DNA of 64,000 nucleotides from Kiritimatiellia bacterium (GTDB lineage Bacteria > Verrucomicrobiota > Kiritimatiellia > RFP12 > UBA1067). Under the pieces are notes generated by a model. The model saw nothing but the letters and a program-made list of their open reading frames with translations. It searched no databases and had not been told where the DNA came from. The DNA lies in the NCBI GenBank assembly GCA_050949565.1, contig JBMNFY010000017.1, positions 1,376,001 through 1,440,000 on the forward strand. Direction: 5' to 3'. A program made the position numbers and the translations under genes. Of this stretch, positions 4,461-22,047 are shown in pieces; positions within the stretch are counted from its first letter, which is position 1; the number at the start of each line of letters is the position of its first letter.

Positions 4461-6780
4461 TAACCACGGAATACACGGAATACACGGAAAGGAACAGGCT
4501 TCTGTGTATTCAGTGTGTTCTGTGGTTCCATCCTTAAACCCAAAGTCTCTCCGCGTGGTCTGCGGGTTTGTTTCTAACCACGGAATACACGGAACACACT
4601 GAAAGGAACAGGCTTCTGTGTATTCAGTGTGTTCTGTGGTTCCATCCCTAAACCAAAAGTCTCTCCGCGTGGTCTGCGGGTTTGTTTCTAACCACGGAAT
4701 ACACGGAACACACAGAAAAGGACAGCTTCCGTGTATTCAGTGTGTTCTGTGGTTCCACCTTAAACCCAAAGCCTTTCCGCGCGGTCTGCGGGTTTGTTTC
4801 TAACCACGGAATACACGGAACACACTGAAAGGAACAGGCTTCCGTGTATTCAGTGTGTTCTGTGGTTCCACCCCTAAACCCAAAGCCTTTCCGCGCGGTC
4901 TGCGGGTTTGTTTCTAACCACGGAATACACGGAACACACTGAAAGGAACAGGCTTCCGTGTATTCAGTGTGTTCTGTGGTTCCACCCCTAAACCAAAAGC
5001 CTTTCCGCGTGGTCTGCGGGTTTGTCTCTAACCACGGCGCGGTCTGCGGGTTTGTTTCTAACCACGGAATACACGGAACACACTGAAAGGACAGGCTTCC
5101 GTGTATTCAGTGTGTTCTGTGGTTCCACCCCTAAACCCAAAGCCTTTCCGCGCGGTCTGCGGGTTTGTTTCTAACCACGGAATACACGGAACACACTGAA
5201 AGGAACAGGCTTCTGTGTATTCAGTGTGTTCTGTGGTTCCATCCCTAAACCAAAAGCCTTTCCGCGTGGCCTGCGGGTTTGTTTCTAACCACGGAATACA
5301 CGGAACACACTGAAAGGAACAGGCTTCAGTGTATTCAGTGTGTTCTGTGGTTCCATCCCTAAACCCAAAGCCTTTCCGCGTGGTCTGCGGGTTTGTTTCT
5401 AACCACGGAATACACGGAACACACTGAAAGGAACAGGCTTCGTGTATTCAGTGTGTTCTGTGGTTCCACCCCTAAACCCAAAGCCTTTCCGCGCGGTCTG
5501 CGGGTTTGTTTCTAACCACGGAATACACGGAACACACTGAAAGGAACAGGCTTCCGTGTATTCAGTGTGTTCTGTGGTTCCACCCCTAAACCCAAAGCCT
5601 TTCCGCGCGGTCTGCGGGTTTGTTTCTAACCACGGAATACACGGAAACACACTGAAAGGAACAGGCTTCCGTGTATTCAGTGTGTTCTGTGGTTCCACCC
5701 TAAACCCAAAGCCTTTCCGCGCGGTCTGCGGGTTTGTTTCTAACCACGGAATACACGGAACACACTGAAAGGAACAGGCTTCCGTGTATTCAGTGTGTTC
5801 TGTGGTTCCACCCCTAAACCCAAAGCCTTTCCGCGCGGTCTGCGGGTTTGTTTCTAACCACGGAATACACGGAACACACTGAAAGGAACAGGCTTCAGTG
5901 TGTTCAGTGTGTTCTGTGGTTCCACCCCTAAACCCAAAGCCTTTCCGCGCGGTCTGCGGGTTTGTTTCTAACCACGGAATACACGGAACACACTGAAAGG
6001 AACAGGCTTCAGTGTGTTCAGTGTGTTCTGTGGTTCCACCCCTAAACCCAAAGCCTTTCCGCGCGGTCTGCGGGTTTGTTTCTAACCACGGAATACACGG
6101 AACACACTGAAAAGGAAACTTCCGTGTATTCAGTGTGTTCTGTGGTTCCACCCCTAAACCCAAAGCCTTTCCGCGCGGTCTGCGGGTTTGTTTCTAACCA
6201 CGGAATACACGGAACACACTGAAGGACACGTGTTTCGTGGTGGGGAACAGGCTTCCGTGTATTCAGTGTGTTCTGTGGTTCCACCCCTAAACCCAAAGCC
6301 TTTCCGCGCGGTCTGCGGGTTTGTTTCTAACCACGGAATACACGGAACACACTGAAAGGAACAGGCTTCAGTGTGTTCAGTGTGTTCTGTGGTTCCACCC
6401 CTAAACCCAAAGCCTTTCCGCGCGGTCTGCGGGTTTGTTTCTAACCACGGAATACACGGAACACACTGAAAAGGGGAAACTTCCGTGTATTCAGTGTGTT
6501 CTGTGGTTCCACCCCTAAACCCAAAGCCTTTCCGCGCGGTCTGCGGGTTTGTTTCTAACCACGGAATACACGGAACACACTGAAAAGGGGAAACTTCCGT
6601 GTATTCAGTGTGTTCTGTGGTTCCACCCCTAAACCCAAAGCCTTTCCGCGCGGTCTGCGGGTTTGTTTCTAACCACGGAATACACGGAACACACTGAAAA
6701 GGGGAAACTTCCGTGTATTCAGTGTGTTCTGTGGTTCCAACCTTAAACCAAAAGCCTTTCCGTGTTTTCTGTGGTTTCAT
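4461..6780. repeat. Tandem array of ~114-bp hairpin units (about 20 copies plus one partial)
   Basis: Unit TAACCACGGAATACACGGAACACACTGAA-loop-TTCCGTGTATTCAGTGTGTTCTGTGGTTCC-linker; starts at 4461, 4575, 4689, 4801 ... 6670. Confidence 0.97.
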
Positions 6781-11974: not shown

Positions 11975-12051
11975 GCGCCTGTAGCTCAATTGGATAGAGT
12001 GTTGGCCTCCGAAGCCAAAGGTTGTGGGTTCAATCCCCGCCAGGCGCACCA
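11975..12051 (+). tRNA. tRNA-Arg(CCG)
   Basis: Cloverleaf: GCGCCTG/CAGGCGC acceptor, TTGGC-CT-CCG-AA-GCCAA anticodon arm, GTTCAAT T-loop, encoded CCA. Confidence 0.96.
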
Positions 12052-12555
12052 TCCGGAAATGAACCCGCGTTTGCAGACGTAAGTATCGTGTATACCGAGT
12101 CTTGCGCGGGTTCAATCTTTTTTTCGGGGGTGAGCGTAAGTTTGCCGAAAACGATCCGAACCAGGTCTTTTGTTTGGGCGACCGTGAGCCCCTCGATCAG
12201 CTCGGCTGGATTTGTAAACACGCCGATCAGGATGTCGATGCACTCGGAACGGTGGTCGGATGAAGCGTCGTGGGACTCCAGCCAGACGCGGTGTTCGGCC
12301 AGTTCGGAGGTCAGCCGGTCTTTTTCGGCGGCGTACTCTTCGGCCGAAAACACACCCTCCAGCAGTGCGCTGCGCAGCCGGGCAAGCTGCGGTTCAATCC
12401 GTGAGACGGCGCGCTGCCGACGGGCGCGCTCCGCACGATCCGGATCTTGCAGATCAAGGTCGTTAACGGCTCCTTTCAGAAGCTCCAAAAATGATGCGAT
12501 CTTGCCGAGGTCGGACAGCATGGCCTCGATCTGGGCGTGGATGTCGTCGCGGTTG
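12030..12555 (-). pseudogene. C-terminal remnant of a large serine recombinase (integrase)
   Basis: Coiled coil LARLRSALLEGVFSAEEYAAEKDRLTSEL; ends GAPGGD* inside the tRNA 3' end; no catalytic N-terminal domain. Confidence 0.72.
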
Positions 12556-12765
12556 CCGGGAGACAAGAGCGCAAAACTGGCGGCTTTAGAACCGTCGTTT
12601 GAAAATGGAGATGTCCACGTCTACGCGCCGGGATGCGGGAAGTGGCTCGATCTGTGGCGGGAACAATTCGCGTCCTTCCCTGACGGGAAGAAAGACGACT
12701 TCTGCGACGCAACGGCGGTCATGTTCCATTCGCACGCCAAGGGCGGCTCGACGATGCTGATTTGA
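12544..12765 (+). pseudogene. C-terminal remnant of terminase large subunit (end of nuclease domain)
   Basis: RLPGDK...LEPSFENGDVHV...FASFPDGKKDDFCDA, directly upstream of the portal gene; no ATPase domain. Confidence 0.82.
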
Positions 12766-16929: not shown

Positions 16930-17316
16930 ATGATTTCTTTCGACAGAGCGCAAACCTACTTCGGAGCAGAGAACCACCACAAGGCGGCCGTGTGGTCGGC
17001 GTTCGGACAGGCGCACAGGACAGGCGCGATCGCGGCGGCGCGGCGCGTGTTGTCGCGCGGGCTCGGCCGCTCGATGGATGAAAACGAACCTGCCTACAAA
17101 GAGGGCGACAGGACGCGCGACGAGTACGCCGTGTACGAACAGGCGTTGTGGATGCTGGAGAACGGGCAGGTGGCCGACGCCGACGGAAACGACCCTGTGC
17201 CGGTCTTGACCGGACGCCCGGACACGGAAGACGTGCGCAGCACAAGCGCATCGGTGTACGCGCCCGAGGCATTGCGATGGCTAGGCATGACAGGCGGCGC
17301 GGTGATCAGGGGGTGA
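16930..17316 (+). CDS. Putative head-tail connector protein
   Basis: AQTYF...W...AVYEQALWML pattern; position in the module. Confidence 0.65.
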   Translation: MISFDRAQTYFGAENHHKAAVWSAFGQAHRTGAIAAARRVLSRGLGRSMDENEPAYKEGDRTRDEYAVYEQALWMLENGQVADADGNDPVPVLTGRPDTEDVRSTSASVYAPEALRWLGMTGGAVIRG

Positions 17317-17319
17317 GAC

Positions 17320-17505
17320 GTGACGAGCATCAGCGTTAGGTTCACGCCCGGTCAGACGGTCGTTATTTTGGCTCTGAATGTCCAGGGATTCATCGAAAAC
17401 GTGCTGATCAGTCGCGGCAATGTAATCCGGTATGACGTGACCTATTGGTTCAACGGCAATCGCGAAACAAAATGCCTGACAGAGGAAGAGATCGATGCCG
17501 TCTAG
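17320..17505 (+). CDS. Small hypothetical phage protein
   Basis: 61-aa ORF coupled to both neighbours. Confidence 0.55.
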   Translation: MTSISVRFTPGQTVVILALNVQGFIENVLISRGNVIRYDVTYWFNGNRETKCLTEEEIDAV

Positions 17506-19219
17506 TCTCCCGCCACCTCTCCGGAAGCTACGCGCGTACCAGACGCGCACGATGGCCGATCTCATGCGCGAACTGAAACGCGCCCGCAAAGAGGTGCGCG
17601 CGGCGATCGCGCTGGCCGCGGCGAAGGCAAAGGCAGCATCGAGCGCGAAGGAACGCGAGGAACTGTACGCGGAGATCGAAGAGAAGTACAGGGAGCTGGC
17701 CGAAAACATTGATGCGCAGATCAGAAAACTGACCGGCATTGCGGCGAAGGCGGGACATGACACGGCGTTGGCGGACATTGCGGATCGCGCGAAAATAACA
17801 GCTTACGACCCGGAACGCGCCGAGCGTTATTTCCAGCTCGTCCACCCGTCTAACGCGCAAAATCTGGCAGCCGTGTTCACCGACCAGATGAGCAGGCGGA
17901 CGGTCGAATCGTTACGGTTCGCCGTTGTTGATGCGTTCCGGCGCGGCGCGATCGAGGGCCTGTCCGCCAACGAGATGCAGCGGGCGATCCGCGACAAATG
18001 GGACGCGCTCGCCGGCAGCGAAGACCCGTTCCGGTTTGTTGATCGCGCGGGGCGCCGGTGGGAGGGCGCGCGATACCTGCAGATGGTGACGCGCACAACA
18101 GCGCAGCGCGTGGCCATCGAGAGCAGCATCGACACTTTTACGGCCAACGGCTACGAGTTGGCGCAGATCAGTCGAGGCGGCGACGGCGAATGCCCGATCT
18201 GCGCAGCGTGGGAAGGGCGTATCATCCAGATGGCCGGAAAATCGAAACGCTGGCCGACGTATGCCGAGGCGCGCGCGGCGGGCATGTTCCATCCCAACTG
18301 CGTCCATCGGCTGCTTCCCGTGGACAGCCTGGTGGACGCAGACGAGATCGAGCAGCAGGGGCGGATCACCAAGCCGACGGCCGACCAAATGGCAGACCCG
18401 GAGTTCATGCAGGCGCAGCACGACCAGATCGACGAGGCGCGATACATGGCCACAGGATTGACGGAAGAGGACGCCAGACGCGCCGTGACCGCCGACCGGC
18501 TGGAGAAGGCAATCAGAAGCGGGACATTTTCCGACGCAGCAGCAGAGGCAGCACGCATGCTTTCGCCGGAGCAGATCGACATGATCAGAGAGCGCGGCAT
18601 CCCGAAGTTTGAACAGGCGCGAAACAACGAGCAGCCGGGGACAAAATTTCAAGGCCGGCTTTTGACACCGCGCAACCCAAACGCCGACGACATTTTGCGG
18701 GTGCTCGGGCTGCCCAAGAGCGGGGGCGACACATCTCCGAAGCCGACACCGAAACCCCCTCCAAGCCTGAAACGCCTGGAGGGGAAGATCGGCGACTGGA
18801 AATCGTTGGGACTCGAAAAAGGGGAGTCCATGAAGGCCGACAACCGCGAGCCGCTCGTATCGGCAAAAGATGCCAGAGCGCGCATCGCCGCCGGTGAGAG
18901 TGTCGAGAATCCGATCGGGGAAACGTTGGCGTTTGACACCGTGACGCTCAAGTACTTGCTGAAATCAGACAGGAAGCCAAGCGATGTCCAGAAACGTTTG
19001 GCCGAGATGGATCAAGCGAAGGCGACGGTGGCGGCTCCGCATGAAATCTGGAAAGACCCGAAGACGGGGCGCAAGAAGTACATCCGTTTCGTCAAGGGCA
19101 GCGGCGGCAACATAGTCGTCAATGTCGTGGATCACAAGGGCAGGCATATCTATAGCTGGCACACGAACGAGCGCAGCCTGAACCATTGGAGAAAAGGGAC
19201 GCTGGTCTACGTCAGGTAA
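17495..19219 (+). CDS. Minor capsid (MuF-like) protein with C-terminal PBECR2-like RNase/toxin domain
   Basis: FVDRAGRRW, CPICAAWEGRI, GMFHPNCVHRL; Pro-rich linker; C-terminal PHEIW...KYIRF...WRKGTLVYVR. Confidence 0.8.
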   Translation: MPSSLPPPLRKLRAYQTRTMADLMRELKRARKEVRAAIALAAAKAKAASSAKEREELYAEIEEKYRELAENIDAQIRKLTGIAAKAGHDTALADIADRAKITAYDPERAERYFQLVHPSNAQNLAAVFTDQMSRRTVESLRFAVVDAFRRGAIEGLSANEMQRAIRDKWDALAGSEDPFRFVDRAGRRWEGARYLQMVTRTTAQRVAIESSIDTFTANGYELAQISRGGDGECPICAAWEGRIIQMAGKSKRWPTYAEARAAGMFHPNCVHRLLPVDSLVDADEIEQQGRITKPTADQMADPEFMQAQHDQIDEARYMATGLTEEDARRAVTADRLEKAIRSGTFSDAAAEAARMLSPEQIDMIRERGIPKFEQARNNEQPGTKFQGRLLTPRNPNADDILRVLGLPKSGGDTSPKPTPKPPPSLKRLEGKIGDWKSLGLEKGESMKADNREPLVSAKDARARIAAGESVENPIGETLAFDTVTLKYLLKSDRKPSDVQKRLAEMDQAKATVAAPHEIWKDPKTGRKKYIRFVKGSGGNIVVNVVDHKGRHIYSWHTNERSLNHWRKGTLVYVR

Positions 19220-19380
19220 AAAAATGGCGGGCCCCCTTTCAAGGTCCCGCCTGAAGGTTAGACTCGCGCCCCCTTCCATGGACACGGGGGACTGTGCCGC
19301 CCCCCCCCAGCAACATCCGGTCGCAGCCTGGCACGGCTACCGGATCGCCCCTTACGGGTAGTCGGAGACTTTCCCGTAGC
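19218..19380 (-). ncRNA. Candidate ~160-nt structured antisense sRNA convergent on the toxin gene
   Basis: Minus-strand TTGACA-N18-TATCTT promoter; three hairpins and a possible pseudoknot; GAAA-loop terminator hairpin followed by U7. Confidence 0.6.
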
Positions 19381-19386
19381 AGTGTT

Positions 19387-19416
19387 AAGATAGCATTTAT
19401 CCGGCCTTTGTGTCAA
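19387..19416 (-). promoter_or_regulatory. Sigma70 promoter with extended -10
   Basis: -35 TTGACA (19416-19411); TG-n-TATCTT (-10 at 19392-19387). Confidence 0.7.
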
Positions 19417-19529
19417 CCGCTGATTTTGACAAATTCCGCCCCGCGTTCCGCCCCCTTGATTTTGACGCGCCGGCCATAGTTGCACACTGTACACGCCGAC
19501 ACTCGCATGTCGTGTTGATTCCTTCACTA

Positions 19530-19565
19530 GCCTCCCCCGTCTGACCACAGGCGGGGGAGGTTTTT
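19530..19565 (+). terminator. Intrinsic terminator
   Basis: CCTCCCCCG...CGGGGGAGG followed by a T run. Confidence 0.75.
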
Positions 19566-19587
19566 GTTTTACCGTATGGCCATAGCT

Positions 19588-20085
19588 ATGGACGTGATCG
19601 TAACAGGGACAGAGGAACTGCTCGCCGCATTAGACAAGTTGCCTGCGACAGCCCGGGCTGCGGCCGTACGCGGAATCACGCGAGCCACTACGCTCGTGTG
19701 GCGCGAATCGGTGAAGAACGCGCCGAGATCGCCGACGGCGGCGCAGAAGGCCAGATTCACGCGCAAGACGCGCCGCGACACATCGGCAAGACGAAAGGCA
19801 ACGGCGCACACACGCGCGAAACCGGGCGGTCTGGAACGCTCAATTTCGATGGACGTGAACGCATCCGCAATCGCGGGTGCGGTGTTCGTGGCTCGGAACG
19901 CGGAGGCCGGAAAGTACGCCAAGCGTATCCACGATGAAAAGGGGGCTTCGTGGCAGAACAGAGGCCCGGGAACAATCGCCAAGGGTCCGCGAGCAGACGA
20001 ACTGTTCATCTCCCGTGCGCTTGAAGATAACCGCCCGAAGATCGACGCGATCATGGCGGAAGAAATGCGGAAGGTGGACCTATGA
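19588..20085 (+). CDS. HK97 gp10-like tail completion protein
   Basis: VTGTEELLAAL, GGLERSI, YAKRIHD, FISRALED. Confidence 0.7.
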   Translation: MDVIVTGTEELLAALDKLPATARAAAVRGITRATTLVWRESVKNAPRSPTAAQKARFTRKTRRDTSARRKATAHTRAKPGGLERSISMDVNASAIAGAVFVARNAEAGKYAKRIHDEKGASWQNRGPGTIAKGPRADELFISRALEDNRPKIDAIMAEEMRKVDL

Positions 20086-20555
20086 TTGACCCGGCATCAT
20101 TCGAGACGGCATGGACAGAGGCGGAGCGGCGCGCGTTCGAGGTGCTTATTGCAGCCGCAGGCGGCACTGAAAACCGCGACGCATTTCTCGGGCGCAACCC
20201 CGGCATCCTGAACGCCTGGCATTTTACGAGCCTCGACGTGACCAACATCGGCGAGAGCGTGCTGCTCGCCCGCGACCTCCCGTCCCTCGGCATCCCCTAC
20301 TACGCCGAGTGCGCGTACCTGAACCGCGACCGCTGCCAGGAGTGGGCGATGCGCGTGATCGCCGGACTGCCGCTGGTGCAGGATGAAATGTCGAACATCG
20401 CCTTGTTCCGGATCAACGGGATCGGCGGGATCGACCATATCACCGTGGACGTGCCGAACGAGAAGCAGCCGGTTGACGTGTGGGGCCTGCGCTTGACGTT
20501 CGATCTCGTGTTCGCTACCGGCGGCAAGCAGAACGCCGTCACGGCCACGGCTTGA
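20082..20555 (+). CDS. Putative tail terminator protein
   Basis: Size and position between the gp10-like gene and the tail tube gene. Confidence 0.5.
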   Translation: MIDPASFETAWTEAERRAFEVLIAAAGGTENRDAFLGRNPGILNAWHFTSLDVTNIGESVLLARDLPSLGIPYYAECAYLNRDRCQEWAMRVIAGLPLVQDEMSNIALFRINGIGGIDHITVDVPNEKQPVDVWGLRLTFDLVFATGGKQNAVTATA

Positions 20556-20584
20556 CGGCGCGGCCATAGGAAAGGAGAAAACCT

Positions 20585-21313
20585 ATGACCACAACCCCAA
20601 CTTTTTTCAGTCCCACCGACGCAATCGACATCAACACGCTGCTGGGGCTCGGCGAAACCGACCCGAAGTGGGTCATCCAGACCGCCGGACCCAGCACACA
20701 GAAAGACCGCGCGTCCGGGCTCGGCGCCGACGGCGATGAGGTCGCGAAAGAAGAATACAACAAGCGCAAGTCCGTCTCGCTGACCTACAAATGCTTTTCG
20801 GCGACAGGGAACCTGTCGCTCCCCTCCGCAGGCACTATTTCAGGCGGCTACCACATCGACAGCGTCGCTCTGGCCTATTCGCCGACCGACTGGCCGACGC
20901 TGACCGTGACCGCCCACAAGCACGACGACGGCGCGACGCACGCGGCCGATTCCTGCCGGACATACACGACCGACCTTGTGTTCCCCGCCCAGTTCGGAGT
21001 GCCGTCCTCGATCAGCGACGGGACAGCGACGGTCATGTTCGCGATGTCTGTCGCGGGGATCGGCATGCGCTCGCTGTCGTTCAGCCTCGCCTGCACCCAC
21101 GTCGACGAGCAGGGAAGCGCGGGCAACTGGCTGGCCGGCGAAAACCACGACGGCGTGGAAACACTAGACGCCGAGTTCACTGGTGTTCCGGCGAGCGGAG
21201 ATTTGACGATCCACGCCGACTGGACAATGACCAGTGACGGCGAAACGAGCGGCAACACGGCCGTGGATTCCCGCACCGTCTCGCTGACACGCCACATCGC
21301 CAAGGACGATTAA
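20585..21313 (+). CDS. Putative major tail tube protein
   Basis: Thr/Ser/Gly-rich 242 aa with two similar halves; strong AAGGAG RBS; position. Confidence 0.6.
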   Translation: MTTTPTFFSPTDAIDINTLLGLGETDPKWVIQTAGPSTQKDRASGLGADGDEVAKEEYNKRKSVSLTYKCFSATGNLSLPSAGTISGGYHIDSVALAYSPTDWPTLTVTAHKHDDGATHAADSCRTYTTDLVFPAQFGVPSSISDGTATVMFAMSVAGIGMRSLSFSLACTHVDEQGSAGNWLAGENHDGVETLDAEFTGVPASGDLTIHADWTMTSDGETSGNTAVDSRTVSLTRHIAKDD

Positions 21314-21318
21314 TCGCT

Positions 21319-22047
21319 GTGATCGCAAAGCCGACCATTCATCCGATGGCCGAACAGCACCTGCGCGAACTGCGCGAGCGCTGGGGCATCGAGCCTGATC
21401 TGAGCGAGGCGCTCTGGATCGTGCAGCTTTGCGACAGGGTGCTCCACCCGACCGGCGACCGCGCCGACCTGTGCGGACTCCCCGTGCGGGCCGGCGTGTC
21501 CGATGTCTGGCTCTGGCCGGTCACGATAGGCGCAGGCATCTTTATCGAGGACAGGCTCCAGCGGTGGTACGGCGGCGACAACCGCCGTGGGACGCTCGCG
21601 CTGGCATGGGTGCTGGCACACGCGAGAGATTCTCAAGCCCTGCGGCAGGCGGCGCGCGGCAGGGAGTTCGCCGACGCGCTGATCGACGAATGGACCGCCG
21701 GGCTGACATGCACCGTCCCCGAGCTTGAGGTGGCGCTTGACGAATTGCTGCCGCCGTCCCCCGAGAAAAAAGACGAACAGGAACCGGCCGAACCGGCGGG
21801 CGCCAACTGGCCGGAGATCGTGCGCGAGCTTGAGGTCATCACGGGACTTCCGGCAGACCACTGGCTGTGGGACATCTCGCGCGACGGCACGGTCAGCGCA
21901 TGGCTGAAAGCGCGCGCGGTAGTCGCGGCGAAAGCCGGCGGTCCAGCGCCGCGCATGTTGTCAGAGATCGATGCCGCGCTACAGGATCTCGCCACTGCCA
22001 AAGCTGCGATCATCAAAGCGCACAAGGAAGCCGACAGTGAGCAATAA
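21319..22047 (+). CDS. Putative tail assembly chaperone
   Basis: Lies between the tube gene and the tape measure gene. Confidence 0.5.
   Translation: MIAKPTIHPMAEQHLRELRERWGIEPDLSEALWIVQLCDRVLHPTGDRADLCGLPVRAGVSDVWLWPVTIGAGIFIEDRLQRWYGGDNRRGTLALAWVLAHARDSQALRQAARGREFADALIDEWTAGLTCTVPELEVALDELLPPSPEKKDEQEPAEPAGANWPEIVRELEVITGLPADHWLWDISRDGTVSAWLKARAVVAAKAGGPAPRMLSEIDAALQDLATAKAAIIKAHKEADSEQ

Follow-up and report, generated by a model that had tools for sequence, protein, structure and literature searches.

Where phage head proteins carry toxin tips, a small immunity protein is generally assumed to be required, and RNase tips of the PBECR type often seem to be without one. MuF toxins in particular have been argued to require a cognate immunity factor, and a small ORF (<150 aa) lies behind 89.4% of 191 MuF toxin genes (PMC5576092, available in part). 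The locus analysed here raises the question of what fills this place behind a PBECR-tipped head protein. The window, by which we mean the whole stretch of DNA analysed, comprises 64,000 nt of contig JBMNFY010000017.1 in assembly GCA_050949565.1 (positions 1,376,001-1,440,000, plus strand), from a Kiritimatiellia bacterium (UBA1067). Its toxin side is defined by three features:

17495-19219, plus strand: MuF-type minor capsid gene with a C-terminal PBECR2 RNase domain, 574 aa (Pfam and PHROGs)
18761-19216, plus strand: region of the PBECR2-type domain (aa 423-574), forming the toxin half of the cassette
18953-18955, plus strand: codon 487 at the active-site position, TAC (Tyr) in place of the family's His, which follows a Lys

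The product of this gene has the architecture of a MuF polymorphic toxin, with a MuF-type head domain followed by a variable C-terminal tip, and the same N-terminal MuF part bears other tips in relatives. Pfam places Phage_min_cap2 at aa 10-275 (57.5 bits) and PBECR2 (PF18810) at aa 494-572 (33.4 bits, above the cut-off of 27.1; 36.2 bits in a whole-genome PF18810 scan), which bears out the earlier note's reading of a minor capsid gene ending in a PBECR2-like domain. The PHROGs match is to a minor head protein (E 7.9e-25), and the surroundings are those of a phage head module, the gene being preceded by portal and major head genes and followed by a neck gene. The domain region matched 83 library representatives at E<=0.001, every one of them at its own C-terminal end. 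Its AF2 model (pLDDT 96.2) shows three helices (60-66, 73-81 and 83-91) and, after them, five strands, the BECR fold being a helix and then a sheet of four to five strands. Among the nine best structural matches of this model, seven are solved RNase/CDI toxins (7m5f, 7vd7, 6cp9, 5i4q, 8ey4, 5znm and 3u97), with Z scores of just 3.3-4.4, and Foldseek returned no match in the PDB at E<=0.001. Searches with tblastn gave zero matches to the domain among 50,697 phage records, the PF18810 profile was absent from all 14 control genomes, and a word-index protein search yielded two close relatives only. The assignment of the tip to the PBECR2/BECR-type RNase domains is supported.

The active site of PBECR domains has been described as a histidine in the N-terminal (pre-alpha) helix, often preceded by lysine, together with a C-terminal Ser/Thr or His (PMC5512222; bioRxiv 10.64898/2026.08.28.747851; both available in part). 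The window's domain retains Ser-Trp-His at its C-terminus, and its residues 486-487 are Lys-Tyr, in a column where 15 of the 16 aligned homologues, and also P0002, have His. The position varies even among near-identical copies (99-100% identity; four His, three Tyr and one Arg among eight, the window included); it is His in all three loci of 83-84% identity (L013-L015), and position 18953 reads C, encoding His, in contigs from four of four RNA runs. Since Tyr stands in place of the family's catalytic His, the window's toxin may be inactive: this copy is a member of the PBECR2 family by descent but is probably not catalytic.

Behind the toxin gene lies a gap of 368 nt (19220-19587), with the next conserved start an ATG at 19588. 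The earlier note had reported that no immunity ORF follows, and this was borne out, as no conserved or family-matching immunity ORF is present in 19220-19587. Of the nine ORFs listed for the gap, the four scanned against Pfam (44-96 aa) gave no match, its minus-strand frames are not conserved among relatives, and a tRNA/tmRNA scan of the gap found none. Conserved blocks do exist here and are read in different frames across lineages (e.g. L016, L017 and L018); this, together with the empty Pfam search, indicates a non-coding unit. The following features, all on the minus strand, make up the unit:

19387-19416, minus strand: sigma-70-type promoter-like site with an extended -10 (TG), TTGACA-N18-TATCTT (consensus scan)
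19218-19380, minus strand: predicted small RNA of about 163 nt, its start placed about 7 nt past the -10 and its end inside the U run
19353-19378, minus strand: H1, 5' hairpin of 6 bp with a large loop (fold and homologous hairpin counts)
19315-19345, minus strand: H2, two-tier hairpin of 7 bp and 4 bp with a six-base loop (fold, -16.9 kcal/mol)
19282-19297, minus strand: small local hairpin, tentative and drawn by eye, using bases of a previously proposed pseudoknot
19253-19276, minus strand: D motif, with a 5-bp outer stem, one-base bulge, 3-bp inner stem with a GNRA loop, and three-base bulge
19218-19251, minus strand: intrinsic terminator, a stem-loop (19226-19251) and a seven-U run (19218-19224) (fold)

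The promoter-like site and the terminator of the unit are where the earlier note had put them. The scan recovered the promoter-like site at 19416..19387 as the sole one in 17000-21500, which, against a chance expectation of 0.9 +/- 1.0, makes it no better than chance by itself; like sites in relatives occupy the same position relative to the RNA, and it is the related loci, not the window by itself, that raise the unit above chance. The terminator, said to overlap the toxin stop codon, is indeed present, its U run overlapping the TAA at 19217-19219; the stem-loop, closed by a GNRA-type loop, has a folding energy of -18.1 kcal/mol that none of 200 shuffles equalled, and it had escaped the consensus scanner owing to an internal mismatch. 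A GAAA-type terminator loop is shared by the relatives of the window's type (the window, L002, L016, L017 and L018), and a U run stands at the equivalent place in eight of the ten lineages printed. The G-U pairs and GNRA loops are consistent with the minus strand only, and the full RNA folds to -78.7 kcal/mol on that strand (z -1.76) versus -61.2 kcal/mol on the plus strand (z +0.37). Rfam 15, including the abiF motif, gave no covariance-model match at or near 19218-19386 at E<=10, and none was obtained on 15 related loci at E<=1. As to expression, RNA-library contigs from two studies stop at 19358 and 19365, within the predicted RNA and 15-22 nt from its start, which is a weak hint; their strand is unreadable, such contigs show neither the strand nor the ends of an RNA, and such libraries may contain DNA. 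The interval 19366-19561 has no contig cover in the four RNA runs, and the uncovered part proves nothing either way. Elsewhere, a joint on the opposite strand (18930/19206) appeared in one RNA run only and was set aside.

Comparison among relatives provides the principal evidence for a structured RNA. In the D motif, whose alignment was fitted to the model, all 48 of 48 cells are paired in six lineages and five of eight pairs are compensatory, giving a covariation score of 0.658 against 0.316 in shuffles; none of 500 shuffles reaches it, and slid controls stay at or below 0.15. For H1, a plain MAFFT alignment of the homologous hairpin in five other lineages shows pairing in 29 of 30 cells and compensatory change in five of six pairs, which 0 of 500 shuffles matched. 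The window's own H1 (-11.3 kcal/mol; 0 of 200 shuffles as stable) was excluded from the count for its loop, longer than those of the homologues. The check for covariation proposed at the outset finds two hairpins with compensatory pairs beyond all 500 shuffles, in counts that cover five to six lineages only. The D core keeps a mean column identity of 77% where the proteins are 40-46% identical. The remaining hairpins were compared by eye only: a like-placed H2 with an identical inner stem occurs in L027/L028, with variable hairpins elsewhere, and a hairpin of 3-8 bp with changed stems stands at the equivalent of 19282-19297 in all ten printed lineages. Longer stretches, in which MAFFT misplaced the variable hairpins, were excluded from the counts.

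The internal architecture proposed in the earlier note stood in part. Its hairpins at 19353-19378 and 19315-19345 are present, whereas the third, at 19269-19290, can be drawn but was rejected, as it competes with the covarying D motif and the relatives favour the fold at 19253-19276. Likewise, the five-base complementarity of 19330-34 with 19294-98, on which a pseudoknot had been postulated, exists, but it finds no consistent comparative backing: by eye, four to five complementary bases can be drawn between an apical loop and a G-rich stretch in six of eight lineages, in two registers, two lineages have a linker that would not reach across the helix, and the window's own pseudoknot bases can instead form the local hairpin. 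A pseudoknot, neither kept in register nor needed, is not supported.

The D motif also served as a search model, R1, which scores 47.4 bits on the window's copy, its sole high-scoring match genome-wide. A high-scoring D motif occurs once per genome, beside the PBECR2 gene, in G000, G465, G616 and G652, and in a sample of 151 genomes of the order R1 matched in G000 and G652 only, in both cases adjacent to PBECR2. Divergent RNAs score low (11-13 bits in L027/L028/L032/L048, from the Verrucomicrobiota genus g11, and 17.8 bits in L029), so the negatives cover the window-type motif only. Two R1 hits in L054 (23-24 bits) proved to be plain GC hairpins. A D-motif pattern scan of viral contigs returned the window's own phage and, beyond it, L023, L024 and L025, which resemble coding sequence and were discarded as chance.

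To place the unit in a wider context, we used a comparison set of 25 distinct PBECR2-type ORFs, in all of which Pfam reports PBECR2 at E<=6.4e-4 and in 18 of which it exceeds the cut-off. Left out were L036 and L040, which run off their contigs; L038, a partial match; L049, whose domain lies within a 1421-aa frame with a tRNA behind it; L043-L047, weak matches with E above 1e-7; and, as near-duplicates, L026, L028, L031, L052, L055 and L022, the last from the viral-contig scan. Besides the window, the carrier proteins are Phage_min_cap2 (2), Portal_Mu (4), Phage_Mu_F (2) or none recognised (17). A convergent non-coding unit lies behind PBECR2 domains of 26-46% identity whatever the carrier, be it MuF-type, Mu portal, Mu F or none, and the portal fusion L018 has the same RNA type as the window. 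The genes that follow the unit vary, from neck-type in the window to a Mu-like protease in L021, L030, L034, L041 and L042, and where PBECR2 ORFs stand in tandem (two on one contig, three on another) each has its own unit behind it. Compared with L002, domain and gap are 87-96% identical, and the flanks 55-82%.

The strand signals agree with this orientation. The conserved antisense promoter that was to be looked for downstream of PBECR2-type genes appears as a bias: a promoter score of at least 9 is found on the opposite strand in 15 of the 25 loci versus one on the gene strand, the loci being partly related and thus not independent, and the opposite strand outscores the gene strand in 18, ties with it in six and falls below it in one. 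Ten loci score below 9 with this consensus, which is of the sigma-70 type, the promoter rules of the phylum not being established. The bias in folding is modest (mean z -1.82 on the opposite strand versus -1.40, the opposite strand being better in 15 of 23). Behind remoter PBECR2 and PBECR3 domains the units are shorter and resemble the window's RNA in position and orientation only; in the three PBECR3 relatives the gap is again non-coding, the promoter scores 10 at a distance of 74-99 nt, and a motif is common to all three.

Relatives with other tips carry something else in the same slot. MuF relatives tipped with a glutamine deamidase (L003, L061 and L068) are followed by a conserved convergent ORF of about 100 aa, and other non-RNase tips (another deamidase in L073, an ADP-ribosyltransferase in L071 and DUF3626 in L081), as well as L067, by co-directional ORFs of 62-86 aa. 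The RNA unit is missing behind MuF relatives with other tips or with none. The distribution supports the view that the gap holds a conserved, structured minus-strand RNA gene that accompanies the toxin domain whatever the carrier or phage backbone, and we consider it highly probable that this is a real RNA gene coupled to PBECR2.

With the anatomy, conservation, covariation and strand bias of the unit and its linkage to the toxin domain established here, the function of the RNA can be considered. Because many prophages that are only distantly related have the same toxin-plus-RNA pair, the RNA probably serves as an antidote in lieu of the usual protein, and the specific claim that it is the immunity or antitoxin partner of the PBECR2 RNase domain we judge to be evenly balanced. 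We infer that the RNA is transcribed in lysogens, that the domain is toxic, and that the RNA neutralises it by binding directly to the protein, and the mechanism would run as follows. A structured RNA would be transcribed separately, towards the toxin gene, ending at the toxin stop codon; toxin domain and RNA gene move as one cassette, as do the toxin tips and immunity genes of polymorphic toxin systems. The prophage would make the RNA from its housekeeping-type promoter; the RNA, as a folded, uncleaved look-alike of the substrate, would bind and block the RNase domain, and would thereby shield the lysogen or producing cell from the enzyme carried by sibling virions. Inhibition through direct binding of RNA to protein is a more tentative element, which we consider possible but somewhat doubtful. 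Two points count against immunity: the window keeps its RNA gene intact although its own toxin is without the catalytic His, and PBECR domains have been proposed to act on the newly infected host (PMC5512222, available in part), where immunity would not be needed.

The most serious alternative is that the RNA is a cis-antisense regulator of the type I kind, which would form a duplex with the 3' stretch of the toxin or late-operon mRNA and so bring about its cleavage or block its expression. Such an RNA would act when late genes leak in the lysogen and would require no protein binding; the convergent layout and the end of the RNA at the stop codon suit it, and prophage type I systems with 3'-overlapping antitoxins have a layout resembling the convergent unit here. 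Overlap with the toxin mRNA hinges on read-through, which is to be expected, since on the plus strand the hairpin beyond the stop lacks a U run and no terminator is evident ahead of the one at 19529-19562; in Mu-like relatives, moreover, the unit sits between two late genes of a single operon. Because the toxin mRNA is without an evident terminator ahead of the RNA gene, simple antisense action is on that ground equally possible. However, complementarity would be automatic, and neither conserved loops nor a covarying two-tier hairpin would be needed across toxins 40-46% identical; the strong terminator halts the RNA short of the coding region; and the toxins of known type I systems are small membrane peptides, quite unlike an RNase domain in a virion protein. 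On balance, we regard antisense regulation as unlikely.

A helper or substrate role, in which the RNA would be a cofactor, a guide, a capsid-packaged partner or an RNA processed by the enzyme, draws on the same tight linkage and co-variation with the toxin subfamily as the immunity reading, and conserved loops and unpaired stretches might serve for recognition. Against this, the unit's own housekeeping-type promoter opposes the late operon, as would suit an RNA produced at times without toxin synthesis, relatives with other toxins have candidate immunity ORFs in this slot, and the literature searched offers no precedent; this reading appears improbable. To a similar degree we doubt that the RNA is an unrelated prophage moron, either a regulatory sRNA of lysogeny or a transcription insulator placed there by shared descent. 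Kinship does inflate the association, all loci being drawn from metagenomes and from the prophage head modules of a single phylum, but the unit tracks the domain over three carrier proteins, stand-alone copies, tandem arrays and varied downstream genes, it is missing after MuF relatives with other tips or none, and a mosaic block unites domain and RNA. Finally, an overlooked small immunity protein in the gap is very improbable, for minus-strand ORFs of 60-120 aa ending near the toxin stop can be drawn at many loci, but open frames are expected anyway in GC-rich DNA, the N-terminal portions are unrelated among loci, the window's ORF begins upstream of the promoter-like site, the compensatory changes lie 19 nt apart, and the differing frames of two conserved blocks in L016/L017/L018, with no common frame and no family hits, speak against it.

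If the RNA is indeed the immunity partner, its conservation would explain the absent immunity gene and add RNA to the kinds of immunity factor known for delivered toxins. RNA immunity could even be the rule for PBECR-type RNase tips of virion proteins, each subfamily (at least two PBECR2 groups, and PBECR3) co-evolving with its own convergent, structured RNA that would occupy the substrate site as a mimic resistant to cleavage, with cassette exchange extending to orphan arrays, and these would then be the first RNA immunity genes in a polymorphic-toxin-like system; we put this forward with more reserve than conviction. The unit would represent an RNA family not described before, whose structural elements are clear and open to mutation, and, if it mimics the substrate, a handle on what PBECR RNases recognise. 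In practical terms, a seemingly empty gap behind a toxin gene deserves a search for RNA genes before the toxin is classed as an orphan.

Several known systems resemble parts of this arrangement. The PBECR domains of phage polyvalent proteins, predicted to be RNases injected along with the DNA, belong to the same family and form the same MuF and portal fusions (PMC5512222), and the literature searched, including the available part of that source, contains no link of PBECR to an RNA partner. The MuF polymorphic toxins of temperate phages share the MuF-type head protein, the swappable C-terminal toxin and the head/packaging module (PMC5576092, available in part); here, in contrast, an RNA gene fills the slot, while the deamidase-tipped relatives retain a protein ORF. 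The AbiF toxin with its RCd22 RNA (abiF motif) is likewise prophage-borne, in Clostridioides difficile, and differs in its Abi_2 toxin, as opposed to PBECR2, and in its RNA family, to which the Rfam search here gave no match (PMC12373285, available in part). Type III toxin-antitoxin systems (ToxIN, CptIN and TenpIN) also pair an endoribonuclease with a non-coding RNA gene in place of a protein antidote, travel on mobile elements and have a terminator between the two genes. Nevertheless, the likeness to ToxI drawn in the earlier note does not hold: the type III RNA is a tandem short-repeat array, upstream on the same strand and processed by the toxin, whereas here a one-copy, multi-hairpin RNA of 160 nt lies downstream and convergent, with no tandem repeats in 18700-19700, and, in place of a ToxN/AbiQ-type protein, a virion protein bearing a BECR-fold domain supplies the toxin. 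Type I systems with a 3'-overlapping antisense RNA have a convergent small RNA complementary to the toxin mRNA; the unit here is convergent and ends at the toxin stop codon, and would overlap the mRNA on read-through. Their toxin is a small hydrophobic peptide and not a 150-aa RNase domain of a 574-aa virion protein. A further parallel is colicin D with its immunity protein, a BECR-fold tRNase that is among the structural matches obtained here (Z 3.5). Colicin D is blocked by a partner that occupies the substrate site, a protein said to mimic tRNA; the inhibitor there is thus a protein, whereas the candidate inhibitor here would be the RNA itself.

The minor capsid gene and the gap behind it carry the following features.

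17495-19219, plus strand: minor capsid protein ORF, 574 aa
18953-18955: putative catalytic codon of the RNase domain, Tyr in the window
19416..19387, minus strand: promoter-like site from the scan, TTGACA-N18-TATCTT, with TG upstream of the -10
19353..19378, minus strand: hairpin H1
19315..19345, minus strand: hairpin H2
19253..19276, minus strand: D motif
19226-19251, minus strand: terminator stem-loop with a GNRA-type loop; seven U at 19218-19224 overlap the TAA

The capsid protein contains a Phage_min_cap2 domain (aa 10-275) and a PBECR2 domain (aa 494-572) that scores 33.4 bits against a Pfam cut-off of 27.1, so the profile bears out the PBECR2-like ending described in an earlier note. PHROGs labels the product as a minor head protein, and the gene is preceded by portal and major head genes and followed by a neck-type gene. 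In an AF2 model (pLDDT 96.2), the toxin domain consists of helices followed by a five-stranded sheet. Of the nine structures that match it best, seven belong to solved RNase or CDI toxins, with CdiA-CT toxins, colicin D and BrnT among the matches; since Z is only 3.3-4.4, the fold assignment depends mainly on the Pfam match. Across the library, the domain search yielded 83 representatives, with the domain C-terminal in every one. About 730 nt upstream of the portal gene, a tRNA-Arg(CCG) gene (11975-12051) overlaps the start of ORF 12022-12765, the end of which shows weak similarity to the C-terminal region of a large terminase (E 3.2e-6). This tRNA gene may be an integration site, the mark of a truncated prophage, or phage-borne. 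Some BECR toxins are tRNases, and a phage-linked tRNA may therefore be of interest.

Judged against a relative, the next gene starts at ATG 19588, and the 368 bases in between (19220-19587) are non-coding. The promoter-like site and terminator that the earlier note had listed for a minus-strand unit are indeed present in this gap. The promoter-like site is the only one in 17000-21500, where shuffled sequences give 0.9 +/- 1.0, and so it proves nothing on its own. The terminator has a folding energy of -18.1 kcal/mol, reached by none of 200 shuffles, and the 169-nt stretch folds to -78.7 kcal/mol (z -1.76) on the minus strand versus -61.2 kcal/mol (z +0.37) on the plus strand. Scans of the RNA-unit stretch found no Rfam family, tRNA or tandem repeat. 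Runs that contain the stretch carry the labels anaerobic digester or bioreactor metagenome. Part of it is present in six metatranscriptome runs, and the contigs of four were compared: in two studies, contigs stop at 19358 and 19365, 15-22 nt within the predicted RNA, and two others end at a homopolymer at about 19301-19308. These ends are a weak hint of a transcript boundary, as strand is not readable from contigs and DNA may be present in RNA libraries. The run of about nine C at 19299-19308 (G on the RNA strand) lies within the RNA gene, is the break point of two of the four RNA-library contigs, and is interrupted by one change in copies of the type of L002, a related prophage.

The right half of the gap contains a strong terminator-like hairpin (19529-19569, plus strand; 15 pairs and a T run) shortly before the neck gene. 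A 10-base word occurs in two exact copies, 36 nt apart (19421-19430 and 19457-19466), adjoined by an inverted pentamer, which shares bases with the -35 element of the RNA promoter, and a 10-base inverted repeat (19215-19224 / 19564-19573) brackets the entire gap. This half is common only to L002-type phages and is replaced in the related locus L014. Its possible contents are an operator region or a second, divergent small RNA; a search for a plus-strand promoter found none.

Open frames can be drawn on the minus strand of this GC-rich DNA. A small protein encoded there was rejected as an explanation: the H1 and D blocks fall in different relative frames in the related loci L016, L017 and L018, the 'proteins' outside these blocks are unrelated between relatives, and the window's own frame begins upstream of the promoter site. 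None of the minus-strand frames scanned has a Pfam match, in agreement with the earlier statement that no immunity ORF follows the toxin.

A domain HMM hit 22 genomes in a sample of 401 from the phylum, and 11 in one of 319 from the order. We retained 25 distinct PBECR2-type loci for comparison, all with a Pfam PBECR2 match (18 above the cut-off). Their carriers, besides the window, are Phage_min_cap2 (2), Portal_Mu (4) and Phage_Mu_F (2); the other 17 have no recognised carrier, and several of these are short ORFs that stand alone. The downstream genes also vary, being neck-type in the window and a Mu-like protease in five loci. In L002, the protein is 75% identical, and the DNA is 87-96% identical to the window over 18800-19550 versus only 55-82% across the gene's N-terminal portion and the gene that follows, so the domain and the gap form one mosaic block. 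Two other differences from L002, a 48-base indel in the Pro/Lys-rich linker before the RNase domain (about 18700-18800) and some 170 absent or unalignable bases directly upstream of the gene start (17300-17500), are mosaic joints of the phage. Metagenome contigs supplied 12 loci. Three of these, at 40-46% identity, repeat the arrangement behind the stop codon, with an A run, a GC hairpin and conserved blocks, and with a hexamer resembling a -35 element on the opposite strand. Tandem PBECR2 ORFs, each with its own downstream unit, occur as two on one contig of genome G191 (L027/L048) and as three on one contig of G394 (L051, L050, L039). The later ORFs of these arrays are short and without a carrier domain, and the RNA-like units within an array differ from each other. 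The arrays resemble the orphan toxin-immunity cassettes of polymorphic toxin loci (CDI, Rhs), which are arranged likewise.

The checks proposed earlier, for a conserved antisense promoter downstream of PBECR2-type genes and for covariation in relatives, both gave positive results. Taking the best promoter-like score per strand in the 260 nt after the stop of the 25 loci, a score of at least 9 was found on the opposite strand in 15 and on the gene strand in 1; the opposite strand outscored the gene strand in 18 loci, tied with it in 6 and fell below it in 1, counts to which related loci do not contribute independently. Folding of these regions is more stable than that of shuffles, the mean z being -1.82 for the opposite strand and -1.40 for the gene strand; the bias to the opposite strand, better in 15 of 23, is modest. 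The window's RNA type is shared by the window/L002, L016, L017, L018, L053 and L054, and more loosely by L029 and a divergent one-genus variant (L027, L028, L032, L048). In its common plan, H1, a 5' hairpin with a large conserved loop, is followed by the long and variable H2 and a small hairpin; a G-rich single-stranded stretch, which is conserved, then leads to the D motif and the terminator. The D motif is a two-tier hairpin with a GNRA loop and two bulges. Across six lineages, all 48 of its cells are paired and 5 of 8 pairs changed on both sides, and its covariation score is 0.658 versus 0.316 in shuffles (0/500 as high) and at most 0.15 with partners slid; the alignment had been fitted to the model, a bias towards the structure. 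H1 was counted in a plain MAFFT alignment of five lineages, excluding the window because its loop is longer: 29 of 30 cells are paired, 5 of the 6 pairs are compensatory, and 0/500 shuffles score as high. Only the strand opposite the toxin gene offers the GNRA loops and the G-U pairs of these stems, and mean column identity in the D core is 77% at a protein identity of 40-46%.

A covariance model of the D core (R1, built from five sequences) gave one high-scoring match per genome, adjoining a PBECR2 gene, in G000, G465, G616 and G652; among 151 genomes of the order, it matched only in G000 and G652, at these PBECR2-adjacent sites. The model is narrow, with the divergent one-genus variant (L027, L048) scoring only 11-13 bits. 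As controls, we used genes sharing the N-terminal MuF-type part (23 of 401 genomes). Behind glutamine-deamidase tips (L003, L061, L068) lies a conserved ORF of about 100 aa, convergent and without a Pfam family (4517-4966, minus strand, in L003), which is a candidate for a new family of immunity proteins. Another deamidase tip (L073), an ADP-ribosyltransferase (L071), DUF3626 (L081) and L067 are each followed by a co-directional ORF, 62-86 aa long. After the three PBECR3 tips (L063, L065, L066), the gap is non-coding, the opposite strand has a promoter-like site scoring 10 at 74-99 nt, and a short motif of 11 bases is shared near the 3' end; these convergent units of about 75-100 nt are possibly a second RNA family paired with a second RNase family. 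In these phages, the slot behind the toxin tip is thus occupied by a protein gene where the toxin is not an RNase, and by an RNA-like unit where it is a PBECR RNase.

According to PMC5512222 and bioRxiv 10.64898/2026.08.28.747851, PBECR and colicin-like enzymes have a catalytic His in the N-terminal (pre-alpha) helix, often with Lys before it, and Ser/Thr or His on the last strands. The corresponding alignment position is the Lys-His of helix 60-66, where His is present in 15 of 16 aligned sequences and in the homologous protein P0002; with Tyr there, the window's copy is probably inactive. The codon is polymorphic between nearly identical prophage copies (loci L005-L015): among eight at 99-100% identity, the window included, it reads His in four, Tyr in three and Arg in one, and it reads His in the three loci at 83-84% (L013-L015) and in the contigs of all four RNA runs. 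Two different replacements at one catalytic codon suggest that the active enzyme would be costly, and as independent events they look like selection against active toxin; such a cost fits real toxicity of the domain.

The earlier note had cast the RNA as an antitoxin or decoy substrate in place of an immunity protein. Linkage, cassette behaviour and controls together favour a toxin-partner pair, and the part of the claim that names the mode of action faces a standing rival. We favour an immunity role in which the folded RNA would block the PBECR2 RNase directly, because the loops are conserved and the stems covary across deep toxin divergence, because the RNA type follows the toxin subfamily and not the carrier, and because RNases bind RNA and solved BECR toxins such as colicin D are blocked at the substrate site by immunity proteins. 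The main rival is antisense action on toxin or late mRNA, which has no evident terminator before the RNA gene and would thus be complementary to the RNA; however, a purely antisense RNA would not need such loops and stems. Direct blocking and antisense action could both be true together. Less probably, the RNA is a helper or a substrate of the RNase, or an unrelated sRNA.

A full-text literature search of partial coverage turned up no account that pairs PBECR or MuF toxins with an RNA. The closest known systems to this unit are type III toxin-antitoxin pairs and the AbiF/RCd22 pair, in which, as PMC12373285 describes, a structured RNA neutralises a prophage toxin by binding. The RNA family, gene layout, toxin fold and virion-protein context of the unit described here are unlike those of either system.
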